A DNA stretch of 22,730 nt from a virus (Duplodnaviria > Heunggongvirae > Uroviricota > Caudoviricetes): the IMG/VR virus record IMGVR_UViG_2565956720_000001; one strand, written 5' to 3'. How positions within the stretch are numbered: the stretch's first letter is position 1; the number at the start of each line of letters is the position of its first letter. The notes below the pieces were generated by a model. That model searched no databases. It was not told the origin of the DNA and saw only the letters and a program-made list of their open reading frames with translations. The translations under genes were made by a program, and so were the position numbers. Positions 1 to 18,802 of this stretch are shown in pieces.

Positions 1-170
1 ACTCACTGCTGATGAATCTGCTGAACCAGTTACAGGACGACGGGCACGACGTATCGGGCGCGGCGGCGGAGCTGACCACCATGTTCTGCTACATCGTCGG
101 TGTGAGCAAATGCCTGCGTGATATCCAGACACACGCAGAGTACATCAATGACAAGGCAGGGTTCTTCTGA
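1..170 (+). CDS. 3' end of an antirepressor-like gene whose 5' part lies outside the window (…SLLMNLLNQLQDDGHDVSGAAAELTTMFCYIVGVSKCLRDIQTHAEYINDKAGFF*)
   Basis: Open frame (phase starting at nt 3) from the window edge to TGA at 168-170. The 55 encoded residues are identical to the C-terminus of the 947..1891 antirepressor on the other strand; the DNA differs at 6 positions, all synonymous. Confidence 0.6.
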   Translation, partial: SLLMNLLNQLQDDGHDVSGAAAELTTMFCYIVGVSKCLRDIQTHAEYINDKAGFF

Positions 171-214
171 CGGGCGGCGGCACATGGATGTGCCTTTAAA
201 TAATTCTGTACAGA

Positions 215-896: not shown

Positions 897-908
897 GTGA
901 CATGTCAC
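897..908. repeat. 12-bp perfect palindrome GTGACATGTCAC, copy 1
   Basis: Exact 12-mer, self-complementary; identical copies at 19377-19388 and 21642-21653. Here it abuts the antirepressor terminator hairpin. Confidence 0.8.
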
Positions 909-946
909 GATAGTTCCTTTTTGCACATCCCTGTGCCTCCGTTCTG

Positions 947-1891
947 TCAGAAGAACCCTGCCTTGTCATTGATGTACTCTGCGTGAGTCTGGATATCACG
1001 CAGGCATTTGCTCACACCAACGATGTAGCAGAACATGGTGGTCAGCTCCGCCGCCGCGCCCGATACGTCATGCCCGTCGTCCTGCAACTGATTCAGCAGA
1101 TTCATCAGCAATGAGTTCTCCGTCAGGCCGAGAACACCAGACGGCGAGTGAATCAGGCTGCGGTAGCCGGGCTTCAGCGGATAACCATAACATTTTGTCT
1201 GTGTTTTAATTGCCTCACGAAGCGCATCTAACATCTTGACTGCCACTTCATCATTCTCTGATGCAGATCCAGCAGGGAGATACTCCCCTTCAAGCGGAAC
1301 CCGAGCAACAAGAGACAACGCTTCGGCGAATTGATCTTCATCAATTTCTTTGTACGAACAGCCAAAATGAGATTTCAGTGACGACCACATGGTGATCATC
1401 GCCTTAGCCTGTTTTTCTTTTGGCAGAGACTGACCGCGACTCATGACGAGTTGTTTAATGGCTTCCTGCTGTTCAGTGGTTATTTTACCCGGCAACGCCT
1501 TTTTAGCTTTGCGTGGGTTAACCACATGGCCTTTAGTCCAGTACTCGTAGAGCACATCGTCACACTCTTCCTGATACTGGATTACCTTGTCGCGGATTTC
1601 AGGACGGACTTTGTTAGGGCTGATGGTTTGCAACCAGCCAGCAAGTTTGCGAAGTGCCAAACAAATAATCTCACGGCGCTGTTCATCCCCAGGAAGCTGC
1701 ATTGTGATTTTCACAATGCAGGTTTTAAACCGCTGCTTCATTTTCGTAAACTGTGAAGCCCAATCCATACCCATTCCCTCAACGATAGGCTTCATTGGTG
1801 TGTACGGTTCGCCGTTGTGATTGACAACATAAAGTTCTACGCCGTGGAATGGCACGTTGATAGTAGATACCGCTGTTGCTATACTCGTCAT
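947..1891 (-). CDS. ant: Phage antirepressor (Ant-like; P22 antirepressor-type N-terminal domain plus C-terminal domain)
   Basis: 314-aa ORF with ATG at 1891 and TGA at 947-949. N-terminal INVPFHGVELYVVNHNGEPYTPMKPIVEGMGMDW matches the antirepressor N-domain signature as remembered. Sits downstream of an Arc-like gene, as arc-ant does in P22 immI. Confidence 0.85.
   Translation of the reverse strand: MTSIATAVSTINVPFHGVELYVVNHNGEPYTPMKPIVEGMGMDWASQFTKMKQRFKTCIVKITMQLPGDEQRREIICLALRKLAGWLQTISPNKVRPEIRDKVIQYQEECDDVLYEYWTKGHVVNPRKAKKALPGKITTEQQEAIKQLVMSRGQSLPKEKQAKAMITMWSSLKSHFGCSYKEIDEDQFAEALSLVARVPLEGEYLPAGSASENDEVAVKMLDALREAIKTQTKCYGYPLKPGYRSLIHSPSGVLGLTENSLLMNLLNQLQDDGHDVSGAAAELTTMFCYIVGVSKCLRDIQTHAEYINDKAGFF
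1857..1885 (+). promoter_or_regulatory. Candidate promoter for a Sar-like antisense RNA (TTGATA -17 bp- TATACT), inside the 5' end of ant on the opposite strand
   Basis: TTGATA at 1857-1862 and TATACT at 1880-1885 with 17-bp spacer; predicted start about 1892, immediately antisense to the ant ribosome-binding region. Confidence 0.35.
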
Positions 1892-1967
1892 GTCGTTAAT
1901 TCCTATACGTAGTTTTACGATACTGAAGCCCTGACGGTCTGGCCACCGTTGGGCTTCGCTGTTTTAT
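1892..1967 (+). ncRNA. sar: Candidate Sar-like antisense RNA complementary to the ant translation-initiation region (about 75 nt)
   Basis: Promoter at 1857-1885; hairpin GAAGCCC…GGGCTTC (1925-1957, inner stem ACGGT/ACCGT) followed by GCTGTTTTAT on the plus strand only. Same layout as the P22 sar RNA between arc and ant. Inferred, not experimentally supported. Confidence 0.35.
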
Positions 1968-2131
1968 GCCACGCTATTCTTCTCACCAGTGAGTCCATAC
2001 ACTTTCCTCAGCTGATAGATAATCTCTGTATTGAACTTTCGGCATTCTTTTTCGCCATTTCTTTCAATAGCTAACTTCACATCGTCCGGAAAACGAACTC
2101 GTCGTTGACACATCTCTTTTGCTTTTTGCAT
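1964..2131 (-). CDS. arc: Arc-like ribbon-helix-helix repressor (55 aa)
   Basis: Start re-placed at ATG 2131 (AAGGAG 7 nt upstream); the track's longer start has no ribosome-binding site. Product MQKAKEMCQRRVRFPDDVKLAIERNGEKECRKFNTEIIYQLRKVYGLTGEKNSVA follows the Arc pattern (R-x-P-x-x-V…NG…N-x-E-I-Y-Q). Directly upstream of ant on the same strand. Confidence 0.65.
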   Translation of the reverse strand: MQKAKEMCQRRVRFPDDVKLAIERNGEKECRKFNTEIIYQLRKVYGLTGEKNSVA

Positions 2132-2146
2132 TTCATATCTCCTTAG

Positions 2147-2214
2147 CCCCACCGTGGGGCAAAACAATTGTCACACCGTGCGTCATTGATGTCAAGCACA
2201 CGGTGAGGCATACT
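2147..2214. promoter_or_regulatory. Divergent, overlapping promoter/operator region between the arc-like and mnt-like genes
   Basis: Minus strand: TTGACA (reverse complement of 2191-2196), 17 bp, GACAAT, reading toward arc. Plus strand: TTGATG (2186-2191), 17 bp, CATACT (2209-2214), reading toward mnt. Palindrome GCCCCAC-C-GTGGGGC at 2147-2161; half-site CACCGTG at 2151-2157 and 2173-2179, inverted as CACGGTG at 2199-2205. Confidence 0.4.
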
Positions 2215-2251
2215 TCAATCATTGCAAGTAACTCAATATTTGGTGAAGAAC

Positions 2252-2683
2252 ATGAGCAGAGAAGATCCACAACTAAGGATCAGACTTCCCGTTGAAGTAA
2301 AAGAAAAAATAGAAATTTCTGCAAAAGCCAATAAGCGATCAATGAACGCTGAAATAGTACAACGTCTTGACACCAGCTTTCTGAAAGATATTCATGAAGA
2401 TGACGTAATTTCTGCTTATGAAGCAAAAATTATTGCAAACAATGCACGGCATGAAATATCAAATATTATTTTCAAAAGAACCTTTAATGAAATTAATAAG
2501 AAAATAACACTTGGACATACAAGTTTTTATATAAACCTTAATGACCTTGAACTGGAATCACTTGCAGATAATGATTACCAGATCATCTTTGAAAAAACAT
2601 TTAATAAGCTCAATGAACTAGGTTACATCATCTGTGAAAACTCATGGGATGCAGATGGTTTTGGAATTGAAATACCTGAATAG
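2252..2683 (+). CDS. mnt: Mnt-like ribbon-helix-helix repressor with an about 95-aa C-terminal extension of unknown function (143 aa)
   Basis: ATG at 2252 with GGTGA 5-6 nt upstream (the track start at 2222 is TTG). N-terminus MSREDPQLRIRLPVEVKEKIEISAKANKRSMNAEIVQRL aligns with remembered P22 Mnt (MARDDPHFNFRMPMEVREKLKFRAEANGRSMNSELLQIV). Roughly one-third G+C by eye. Confidence 0.8.
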   Translation: MSREDPQLRIRLPVEVKEKIEISAKANKRSMNAEIVQRLDTSFLKDIHEDDVISAYEAKIIANNARHEISNIIFKRTFNEINKKITLGHTSFYINLNDLELESLADNDYQIIFEKTFNKLNELGYIICENSWDADGFGIEIPE

Positions 2684-2694
2684 GAAGAACAAAA

Positions 2695-2720
2695 GGCGTG
2701 TACATATTACACGTCTTTAA
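2695..2720 (+). terminator. Candidate intrinsic terminator after the mnt-like gene
   Basis: GGCGTGTA-CATAT-TACACGTC hairpin followed by TTTAA; moderate T-tract. Confidence 0.35.
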
Positions 2721-2773
2721 TACAATTGAAAAACGCCACATTACTGATGTATGTTACAACAAGGAGCGATATT

Positions 2774-3337
2774 TTGAAAACCATATCTATATTAAAGGTT
2801 GCATTAGGCGTCGCTATTATTTTGACTCTCTCAATATTGTTTTATTTTTACCACAAAAAAACAGCTATTGCTCTTGATGGTCACGCGGCAAACTCATTTT
2901 TCTCAGAGTACATAGTGCCGCTATCAGGAAGCGGTATAACAAATAAATATACTGACTATGACATCAAATATGGAATTGATGATGGGGAGACTATTGTATT
3001 ACATGTAATCATTAAAAACCTAATGACAGTAAATAAAAATACAGACTTCAACGATAAAAATACAATACATCACAACAACAGCAAAACATTAATTTCTTAT
3101 AGTAGCAACATCTATACGGATAAATACCTAAAATACATCTCAGAAGATACAATAAAAGCAACCAGCGAAAAGTTAAAAAACATATATTGTGCATCCGGCA
3201 GTTTTCACAAATTATCGCCGCAAGAGCGTTTATTCTACGAAGCAAGAAAACAACGTAAGTCAATAATATTACATTATTATGCTGATTCAGGGGAGTCACT
3301 CATATTTAATATTGGGGTTTCCCCTGAATCATGCTAA
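2774..3337 (+). CDS. AT-rich signal-anchored/secreted protein of unknown function in the sieA-equivalent position (candidate superinfection-exclusion protein)
   Basis: ORF to TAA at 3335-3337. Best-supported start is TTG 2774, with AAGGAG (2761-2766) 7 nt upstream; alternatives are ATG 2747 (no ribosome-binding site) and the track's TTG 2726. N-terminus KTISILKVALGVAIILTLSILFYFYHKK is a signal anchor. Asn/Lys/Tyr-rich, low G+C. Confidence 0.6.
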   Translation: MKTISILKVALGVAIILTLSILFYFYHKKTAIALDGHAANSFFSEYIVPLSGSGITNKYTDYDIKYGIDDGETIVLHVIIKNLMTVNKNTDFNDKNTIHHNNSKTLISYSSNIYTDKYLKYISEDTIKATSEKLKNIYCASGSFHKLSPQERLFYEARKQRKSIILHYYADSGESLIFNIGVSPESC

Positions 3338-14403: not shown

Positions 14404-15396
14404 TTACACCACGCGGGCTTCTGTTTCCAGAAGTGCGTCAGTTTCGCGAATCGGCACACCACGAAGTGCTGTCCACCATTCGCCTTCTGTCTCTTTCACG
14501 CTGATCGCCAGAGAACTCTTCTCCAGAGATTGCAGGTCAAGCACTTCGTTAATGGTTCTGTTCATGTAGAAAACAGGACGTCCCATCCCACGATTTGGGA
14601 TTCGATGAAGGGCACGAATCATCAGTTTTGCGATATTCGCGGCAGTAGAAGGAGCGTCAAGATTACTGACATCAATGTTTGCGATACGAACTACATAGCG
14701 CCAGTCACGTAATGTCAGCCCGTTGTCCCACTTATAATGGGTACGATAACCTTCGTACTTGCCGCCATTAGCATCTTCCAGTGTCACCTGGCCTTTATCT
14801 TCCATCTGAATGCCAGCCTTCTGTCCTTTCGGGAAGATGCCATGCACGGTGTTTTCGCCCCACACCACTAACCAGATTGAAGTGTTATCTGTACCCGTGC
14901 CACCAGCATCAATGATGTTCTGAGCATTACCCGCAGACAGGCTGGAATATCGGGAGGACAGTCCCATAAACTGCTGAGGGTTAACGCTGGAATCACCGTA
15001 AAACAGTGTCTGCGCCATCGCCTGATTCATCGCTTCAATAAATGCGCGGTCTTCAGACAGGCGGAATTCGGCGGTATTGCCGTTCAGATCAGCCAGTGAC
15101 TTATCGACTTCAGCATAGGTTTCCAGCATGCCAACGTAATCGGTTACCTGCACTGTGGTTGATTTGCTTGGCTGTACGCCATAGTTCAGCAAACGCCAGG
15201 TAGCTGAAGGTAAACCAGAACGAATGGTGGTTCGGTGTCCGGTAGGAAGGTTCCCTTCGACAAAAGGCATATCCTGAAGGATCGGGTTAGTTTGACCGAG
15301 AAGCTCGATAATCTTATCGACTTTCCCGTTTGGATCGACGCGCTTACCCCAGTCAGCCAGCGTTAGCGCAGTTAAGCCTTTAACAGCCATTGTCAT
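14404..15396 (-). CDS. Major capsid protein (330 aa)
   Basis: Follows the scaffold gene in the portal-scaffold-capsid order; ATG at 15396 (or 15390) with a GAGAGGAA ribosome-binding site. Confidence 0.85.
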   Translation of the reverse strand: MTMAVKGLTALTLADWGKRVDPNGKVDKIIELLGQTNPILQDMPFVEGNLPTGHRTTIRSGLPSATWRLLNYGVQPSKSTTVQVTDYVGMLETYAEVDKSLADLNGNTAEFRLSEDRAFIEAMNQAMAQTLFYGDSSVNPQQFMGLSSRYSSLSAGNAQNIIDAGGTGTDNTSIWLVVWGENTVHGIFPKGQKAGIQMEDKGQVTLEDANGGKYEGYRTHYKWDNGLTLRDWRYVVRIANIDVSNLDAPSTAANIAKLMIRALHRIPNRGMGRPVFYMNRTINEVLDLQSLEKSSLAISVKETEGEWWTALRGVPIRETDALLETEARVV

Positions 15397-18725: not shown

Positions 18726-18802
18726 GTGGCATTAGCTCAGCTGGACAGAGCAACCGCCTTCTAAGCGGTTGGTCGCAGGTTCGAATCCTGCATGCCACGC
18801 CA
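18726..18802 (+). tRNA. tRNA-Arg (anticodon UCU, reads AGA), with encoded CCA
   Basis: Manually folded cloverleaf: acceptor GTGGCAT/ATGCCAC, D-stem GCTC/GAGC, anticodon stem ACCGC/GCGGT with loop CTTCTAA (anticodon TCT), variable loop TGGTC, T-arm GCAGG-TTCGAAT-CCTGC, discriminator G plus CCA. Confidence 0.9.

Follow-up and report, generated by a model that had tools for sequence, protein, structure and literature searches.

How is an antirepressor gene kept in check, given that the modules to which such genes belong determine whether a resident prophage remains silent? The question is raised by a divergent three-gene locus within a 22,730-nucleotide stretch of tailed-phage DNA (IMG/VR record IMGVR_UViG_2565956720_000001; this whole stretch is called the window below), in which an antirepressor gene, ant, and the genes of two small repressors resembling Arc and Mnt lie about a compact control region. 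An initial annotation had likened this region to immI of phage P22. As argued here, it is very probably the control centre of an immI-type antirepressor module in a prophage like Escherichia phage TL-2011b, worked through three operators of one family, where P22 has one Oarc and one Omnt. Most of the biology is already familiar: the immI arrangement, the sar family of antisense RNAs, the fold of Arc and Mnt. What would nonetheless make this a new, if modest, variant of immI, with good support across loci, is its operator architecture, its promoter geometry and the C-terminal domain of the Mnt-like protein; a literature search found no description of the three-operator layout or of a two-domain Mnt-like protein.

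The setting gives the question some weight. Antirepressors can also reach the repressors of further prophages that share the host cell (Lemire et al. 2011, PMC3121763). The phage TL-2011b, an epsilon15/phiV10-like podovirus, came from an enterohaemorrhagic Escherichia coli O103:H25 outbreak strain, so the control of its Ant bears on prophage cross-induction. The region under study is 99% identical to TL-2011b (the whole window about 97%) and 100% identical to a prophage of E. coli AR_0085. Among 5426 complete E. coli genomes, the whole region is found in 36, and the 5' end of ant with the adjoining antisense RNA stretch alone, joined to other upstream genes, in about 200. Window positions 900-3000 were inspected on both strands and their open reading frames (ORFs) catalogued. 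The resulting layout, an mnt-like gene on the plus strand divergent from arc-like and then ant on the minus strand, is the one first proposed, and matches the annotated gene order and orientation of P22 immI (coordinates in Table 1).

The identity of Ant is plain. Its N-terminal domain matches Pfam P22_AR_N with an E value of 3.7e-44 and is 49% identical to the N-terminus of P22 Ant, whereas the C-terminal domain P22_AR_C was not detected in a Pfam search. Because the alignment with P22 Ant begins at Met1, the start of the gene is taken as the ATG at 1891-1889, preceded by a Shine-Dalgarno sequence (AGGAA, 1900-1904), and not as the GTG at 1855, 12 codons downstream, where the RefSeq pipeline PGAP places it.

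The control region holds a cluster of three 15-bp sites, O1 to O3, that fit GNCNCACSGTGNGNC with 0, 0 and 1 mismatch. No other such sites occur in the 22.7 kb. The cluster spans 64 bp; 300 shuffles that preserved dinucleotides gave on average 0.3 sites per window, and in none did three sites fall within 70 bp (0/300). The bare heptamer, in contrast, is not rare, with 5 occurrences in the window versus 2.5 expected. The initial annotation had pointed to the perfect palindrome that we call O1, and to three copies of the heptamer CACCGTG, one of them inverted. All are present (the heptamers at 2150 and 2174, and inverted as CACGGTG at 2199), but the heptamers turn out to be the cores of three full operators of a single family rather than parts of an Oarc and Omnt pair. 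O1 has the core CCACgGTGG in common with P22 Omnt (AGGTCCACGGTGGACCT) and lies at the same offset from the -10 hexamer of the ant promoter, Pant, with flanks GCCCCAC versus GGTCCAC; like Omnt, it is a single palindrome at the start region of Pant. An Arc operator of the P22 type, a 21-bp element of the form TAGA-N(5-9)-TCTA, was found nowhere in the window. Two other explanations of these sites were rejected. A CRP or LexA site over O2 would amount to a lone TGTGA picked out by eye and lacking a second half-site. A hairpin in the 5' untranslated region of the arc-ant mRNA is unlikely to be the main role of O1, since the half-site recurs at O2 and O3 and the centre base varies while the arms stay symmetric.

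How general is the array? Three operators with the common half-site GCCYCAC keep their positions in no fewer than 26 loci, drawn from many Enterobacterales. The main comparison covers 12 diverged control regions, to which a species-level scan added 15 further loci of the same layout; all three operators are present in each of the 12, and the O1-position site scored in 13 of the 15. The spacing is nearly constant in the 12 regions, with 25 bp between the centres of O3 and O2 in every case, 24-26 bp between those of O2 and O1, and 49-51 nt from the mnt ATG to the centre of O3. Half-site positions 3, 5 and 6 are invariant (72/72), and the centre base varies freely. The reverse complement of O2, GACGCACGGTGTGAC, is identical in 10 of the 12, the two exceptions keeping the half-site consensus, and O3 is a near-perfect GCCCCACnGTGGGGT in 11 of 12; in the window it is O1 that is perfect and O3 that is degenerate.

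The flanks of these operators follow the Mnt-like protein. A recognition strand of the form QLR(I/V)R is paired with GCCCCAC. Strands with K at position 8 go with another class of site, GAACCAC or GGACCAC: the loci of Acinetobacter, Giesbergeria and Pseudorhodoferax (QLK[IV]R) carry three of these, and one P22-like phage (QFKLR) carries a single GAACCACGGTGGTTC. The HFNFR of P22 itself goes with GGTCCAC. Position 8 thus reads R with GCCCCAC, K with GAACCAC and N (in P22) with GGTCCAC. This covariation ties the operator family to an Mnt-type recognition strand, and it bears out the earlier expectation that operator specificity here differs from that of P22. For students of ribbon-helix-helix (RHH) proteins it offers a natural specificity series, with R, K or N at position 8 and half-site flanks CCC, AAC or GTC. 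In loci from Xenorhabdus and Serratia, three xCTCAC sites are kept although the small partner ORF carries no RHH signal. Since arrays persist without a recognisable RHH partner, the array is independent of the Arc-like protein and belongs at least to the Mnt-like one.

The Mnt-like protein is only in part what its label says. Residues 2-46 are an Arc-type RHH domain (Pfam Arc, E 1e-14), the best solved relative of which is the Mnt repressor (1mnt, E 3.5e-7), and the first 13 residues, MSREDPQLRIRLP, parallel those of Mnt, MARDDPHFNFRMP. The label therefore stands for the N-terminal domain. It fails for the remainder: the protein has 143 residues and an alpha/beta C-terminal domain unrelated to the tetramerisation helix with which the 82-residue P22 Mnt ends. 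The family is large, with at least 262 clusters across Enterobacterales, Yersinia pestis included.

The Arc-like partner is more divergent. Its gene has AAGGAG 7 nt ahead of the ATG and a stop codon at 1964-1966, and an Arc-like ORF of 55-58 codons adjoins the Mnt-like gene in every context look-up; only one Proteus contig has no Arc-like gene call, and even its DNA retains the frame. A 15-member profile of the family aligns with an Arc/Mnt alignment at 96.3% probability (hhalign, E 1.8e-9), with Q9, R11, R13 and P15 in register over Q9, N11, R13 and P15 of Arc. The protein also matches PHROG 228, 'Arc-like repressor', with an E value of 3e-5, and when the family profile is compared with the PDB, Arc chains emerge only at E 0.04-0.1. 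It is the profile comparison and PHROG 228 that support the identification of this 55-residue protein as a probable homologue of Arc (53 residues), in a subfamily that, unlike P22 Arc, is not captured by Pfam Arc. The family is small (19 clusters in a word-indexed search), and the motif Q-x-(R/K)-x-R-x-P is retained in all 15 members. Both repressors show the pattern of the Arc/MetJ class, with an N-terminal beta-strand of alternating DNA-facing residues ending in proline (Q-x-R-x-R-x-P) and followed by two helices. Both would thus present Q-x-R-x-R on the strand that reads DNA.

Two divergent promoters are fitted around the operators. The hexamers of Pant are separated by 17 nt and match 10 of 12 consensus positions, and those of the candidate mnt promoter, Pmnt, lie back to back with them, the two -35 hexamers overlapping by 2 bp (TTGATGTCAA). 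Overlapping hexamers had been described before, as face to face; the overlap is real, and the orientation is divergent. Only the -35 hexamers overlap, which sets this region apart from the interdigitated promoters of P22, where each -10 lies over the opposite -35 and the starts are about 37 bp apart. Here the starts would be about 60 bp apart.

A further layer of control is predicted at the arc-ant junction. The plus strand at 1893-1960 matches the Rfam sar family (RF00262) over the full model (1-68/68) with 45.2 bits against a gathering score of 43, in keeping with the antisense RNA of about 75 nt foreseen in the initial annotation. The P22 sar RNA scores 97.8 bits and that of an Enterobacter relative 59.4 bits; seven further relatives give full-length, sub-threshold matches of 25-38 bits at the same junction. 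P22 sar starts 7 nt past a TATACT -10 hexamer, directly beside the ant ATG, and its end overlaps the stop codon of arc. Because the same start rule was applied here, the RNA is taken to span 1892 to about 1965, or about 74 nt. It would cover the ant ribosome-binding site, adjoin the ant ATG and reach the arc stop, and it folds into two hairpins (minimum free energy -23.7 kcal/mol, z -2.56). Its predicted sigma-70 promoter, Psar, is the TTGATA-17-TATACT noted earlier inside the 5' end of ant, which lies where it was placed, has a TG at 1877-1878 and matches 10 of 12 consensus positions in a sequence scan. The hairpin and T-tract downstream, first given as 1925-1967, are present with slightly different limits: the arms GAAGCCC (1925-1931) and GGGCTTC (1951-1957) pair, and the tract is the TGTTTT of Table 1. 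All the motifs of the initial annotation were in fact found within a few bases of where it had put them.

Other loci also support the prediction of this RNA. Through the Ant N-domain, 80 loci were gathered, which yielded 30 distinct versions of the junction and 19 promoter variants. The Psar -35 is TTGATA, TTGATT or TTGATG in most of the 19 (TTAACT in P22), and the T-A....T of the -10 with its upstream TG is kept in nearly all of them despite I to V/L and S to N/T changes in the encoded protein. In the terminator hairpin, 93% of cells are paired, versus 34-49% when the partners are slid, and the covariation score is 0.261 against 0.182 for shuffles, none of which (0 of 500) attained it. U.G and G.U pairs occur in 13 and 10 of 20 sequences; these would be C.A mismatches on the mRNA strand, which points to selection for the hairpin on the sar strand. 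When the 29 variants are folded one by one, all of them form stem 1, with differing arms (GUCGU/ACGAU, GUUGGU/ACUGAC, GUCAAU/GUUGAU and GUCAGU/ACUGGC among them); RNAalifold on a MAFFT alignment did not recover it, because the 5' part aligns poorly. Like the Rfam family, the predicted RNA has two stem-loops, of which the first contains an anti-Shine-Dalgarno sequence and the second is an intrinsic terminator. It differs in length (about 74 nt versus 68-69 nt), in a -35 nearer to consensus than that of P22, and in the sequences of the terminator loop and inner stem.

From these features we infer the activity of the promoters, the assignment of repressors to operators and the order of regulatory events as follows. 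Pant, with a start near 2160 on the minus strand, would drive arc-like and then ant; Pmnt, with a start near 2221 on the plus strand, would drive the mnt-like gene; and the two RHH repressors would act on the three operators with their common half-site. In a lysogen, the Mnt-like protein would keep ant off through O1 and would probably limit its own synthesis through O3. After infection or derepression, the Arc-like protein made from Pant would shut Pant again, most likely at O2 and possibly also at O3. Meanwhile a constitutive RNA of the sar family, starting inside ant and terminating at the hairpin that overlaps the arc stop, would pair over the ribosome-binding site and start codon of ant and block translation.

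Several observations weigh against one or another part of this proposal. Some concern the Arc-like protein. Taken as a single sequence it has no Pfam match at E 0.01 or better, its PDB search returns only spurious TALE-repeat and primase matches, and an AlphaFold2 (AF2) monomer model is uninformative (pLDDT 57). Its position 11 may be R or K beside an identical O2, and among the compared loci no covariation was found that would assign any operator to it. The degenerate O3 of the window is unlike that of all relatives. TTGATG-17-CATACT, the candidate Pmnt, matches just 8 of 12 positions and falls under the scan threshold, which makes it a weak promoter candidate. Promoter-like hexamer pairs are not enriched at all, with 4 found versus 3.6 expected in shuffles, so that the promoters draw their support from conservation in relatives and not from the quality of the match. 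Finally, the sar match is just 2 bits over its threshold, and stem 1 is weakest in the window, at -3.0 kcal/mol compared to about -6 in relatives.

Which repressor reads which operator? Perhaps the division of labour is simply that of P22, with the Mnt-like protein bound to O1 only (and perhaps O3), the Arc-like protein alone bound to O2, and the CACnGTG core a mark of common ancestry of the repressors. This is a serious possibility, though on balance a doubtful one. O2 lies exactly at the P22 Oarc position in the Pant spacer, its half-sites (GACGCAC/GTCACAC) differ from the GCCYCAC of O1 and O3 at positions 2 and 4 in 10 of 12 loci, and P22 Arc and Mnt have similar recognition strands, yet different operators. 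The invariance of O2 may, however, be a promoter constraint, because O2 overlaps the extended -10 of Pant. Moreover, O2 has GCCTCAC or GCCGCAC in Citrobacter and Morganella with no matching change in the Arc-like protein, and the O2-position site is kept in the Xenorhabdus and Serratia loci, where the partner is not recognisably an RHH protein. Those three-site arrays beside a non-RHH partner, and the covariation of the flanks with position 8 of the Mnt-like protein, where position 11 of the Arc-like one shows none, could be taken a step further: the Mnt-like protein alone might use all three operators, as a graded array like lambda OR, and the Arc-like protein might act otherwise, for instance by binding the Mnt-like protein or Ant. 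We consider this quite improbable, considering that the Arc-like protein is in register with the DNA-reading strand of Arc, with its motif intact in every member, and that the Pseudorhodoferax partners, QVKIRLP and QLKIRLP, have identical DNA-facing residues. Action of both RHH repressors on the array thus remains the reading that we favour.

The antisense RNA has its own alternative, in which no such RNA is made, the hairpin at 1925-1957 serves only the structure or processing of the arc-ant mRNA, and the TTGATA and TATACT hexamers are a by-product of conserved N-terminal Ant codons. The lack of enrichment of promoter-like matches over shuffles would suit this view, as would the location of the promoter in coding sequence and the ability of the hairpin to form on both strands. 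Against it stand the full-length Rfam match above threshold, the retention of the -10 pattern and TG despite changes in the encoded residues, the U.G and G.U pairs that the mRNA strand could not form, and a T-tract that follows the hairpin on the plus strand only. In addition, the homologous element of P22 is an experimentally mapped RNA (NC_002371 annotation; PMC2629481). The alternative is therefore very improbable, and a sar-family RNA is retained in the proposed working.

The three-operator array also invites comparison with a classical switch. In lambda OR, three related operators lie between the divergent promoters PR and PRM and are bound by helix-turn-helix proteins. Here, too, three related palindromic operators of graded quality lie between divergent promoters, with a site beside each -35 centred near -42 to -45 of the opposite promoter. 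The likeness is one of working and not of ancestry: the proteins are unrelated (RHH versus helix-turn-helix), the third operator here is downstream of one start, and neither cooperativity nor activation is implied by the analogy. A bolder version of the favoured reading would have the two repressors share the code Q-x-R/K-x-R and compete or cooperate on the one array, as a bistable RHH switch in the manner of lambda OR. This we hold to be rather unlikely. If it were true, the alpha/beta domain of the Mnt-like protein would be a module for oligomerisation or signal sensing, not described before, that dictates the order of site filling, and the two-operator immI of P22 would be a derived exception to a three-site layout common across Proteobacteria. 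The conserved geometry provides a comparison for the well-studied Arc and Mnt paradigm.

How close, then, is the likeness to P22 immI? The gene order, the N-domain of Ant, the Arc/Mnt-type RHH repressors, an operator at +8 of Pant (the Omnt-like O1), a second operator in the Pant spacer, and an antisense RNA, predicted here, that begins beside the ant ATG and whose terminator overlaps the arc stop are all common to the two. The operator pair and the interdigitated promoters of P22 are not found here. The phage itself is epsilon15/phiV10-like rather than P22-like. The cassette fits the concept of the 'ant morons' of P22-like phages, highly variable mosaic mobile cassettes with mnt, arc and ant homologues in late operons, of which the P22 version alone has been studied (Villafane et al. 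2008, PMC2629481). Their account is confined to the gene content of P22-like podoviruses. The present cassette differs in its epsilon15-like host and, in relatives, in its sites and partners: the antirepressor joined to the control unit may be a P22_AR_N Ant, a Bro-N protein, Bro-N with P22_AR_C, or a Rha/ANT type. In lambda-like and other siphovirus or myovirus prophages the cassette sits inside tail gene clusters, as between L and K-like genes in E. coli and Y. pestis or beside tape-measure genes in Enterobacter.

Table 1. Features of the control region and adjoining genes (window coordinates).
Feature	Position	Strand	Basis or remark
ant, antirepressor, 314 aa	947..1891	-	ORF list; Pfam P22_AR_N; PHROG 524/245 'anti-repressor Ant'
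Psar -35 TTGATA, within ant codons 10-12	1857..1862	+	Promoter scan
Psar extended -10 TGcTATACT, within ant codons 2-5	1877..1885	+	Promoter scan (TATACT at 1880-1885)
Predicted sar-like antisense RNA, about 74 nt	1892..1965	+	Rfam RF00262; start by P22 analogy
sar stem-loop 1	1892..1921	+	UUCCU 1900-1904 complementary to ant Shine-Dalgarno AGGAA
sar terminator: hairpin 1925-1957 and TGTTTT 1960-1965	1925..1965	+	Covariation; overlaps arc-like stop as in P22
arc-like gene, 55 aa, probable divergent Arc-type RHH	1964..2131	-	hhalign, PHROG 228; beta-strand Q9-R-R11-V-R13-F-P15
O1, perfect palindrome GCCCCAC-C-GTGGGGC (GCCCCACCGTGGGGC)	2146..2160		Centre about +8 of Pant, the P22 Omnt position
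Pant -10 GACAAT, TG before	2167..2172	-	Promoter scan; GACAAT/GACACT in 12/12 control regions
O2, GTCACAC-C-GTGCGTC	2170..2184		In Pant spacer and over extended -10, at P22 Oarc position
Candidate Pmnt -35 TTGATG	2186..2191	+	Direct reading; TTGAAG/TTGATG/TTGCTG in relatives
Pant -35 TTGACA	2190..2195	-	Promoter scan; TTGACA/TTGACT in 12/12 control regions
O3, AGCACAC-G-GTGAGGC	2195..2209		In Pmnt spacer, abuts Pant -35; no P22 counterpart
Candidate Pmnt -10 CATACT	2209..2214	+	Direct reading; CATAAT in relatives
mnt-like gene, 143 aa from first ATG	2252..2683	+	RHH N-domain (1-46) and alpha/beta C-domain (about 55-143)

Some of the related loci show the cassette in other states. A Morganella contig (2426-2501) carries a 50-bp deletion that fuses O3 to O1 (TATGCCCCACGGTGGGGCATTAAAGGAG), with loss of O2, both -35 hexamers and the Pant -10, and looks like the outcome of recombination between the repeated operators. 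The control region of E. coli QIBL01000006 (2300-2700) is full of small indels, its Mnt-like frame ends after 15 residues, and O1 and O3 are damaged; this copy is either a decaying cassette or a poor assembly. Within the window itself, the 3' arm of the sar terminator (1943-1954, CCACCGTTGGGC) matches the core and right half of O1 at 11 of 12 positions, and the corresponding arm of sister phages, CCACCGTGGGGC, does so at 12 of 12. The arm could serve as a fourth operator, of half strength, at the junction of arc and ant, or the match may be coincidental, since the P22 terminator also ends in GGGGCTTC.

Public annotation misses most of this module, with the mnt-like gene truncated in TL-2011b, the Arc-like protein labelled 'hypothetical' in RefSeq, and the ant start set downstream of Psar. 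With the PGAP start, the gene would contain neither the Psar -10 nor the sar target. In the TL-2011b record (NC_019445, 6544-6885) there is one extra G near window position 2275, CTAAGGGATCAG versus CTAAGGATCAG in the window. The extra G breaks the Mnt-like frame after about 8 codons, so that the record annotates only a truncated 'hypothetical protein' from an internal Met (window 2343); it is either a sequencing error or a genuine defect of the mnt-like gene. The RefSeq record of P22 itself (14519-14770) calls the mnt product 'partition protein ATPase', an annotation error that has been passed on to PHROGs 795 and 2685, the ones matched by the Mnt-like and Arc-like proteins.

Window positions 1-171 and 946-1116 form an inverted repeat of 171 nt (96% complementary), in which the 3' end of ant recurs, inverted, at a distance of 774 nt. 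Its copies flank the small ORFs 284-472 and 474-806, which belong to PHROGs of unknown function, and since the left arm reaches the window edge, more of the repeat may lie beyond it. The arrangement could represent either an invertible segment or the scar of a recombination event. Directly downstream of the mnt-like gene, on the same strand, a 203-codon ORF (2726-3337, plus strand; PHROG 8033, unknown function) encodes a protein with a hydrophobic N-terminus and occupies the position of P22 orf59a and sieA. Farther along, a tRNA gene lies at 18726-18799 on the plus strand (Rfam, 71.7 bits); its anticodon loop, CUUCUAA, gives the anticodon UCU (Arg), and a tRNA-Arg is annotated here in related typing phages.

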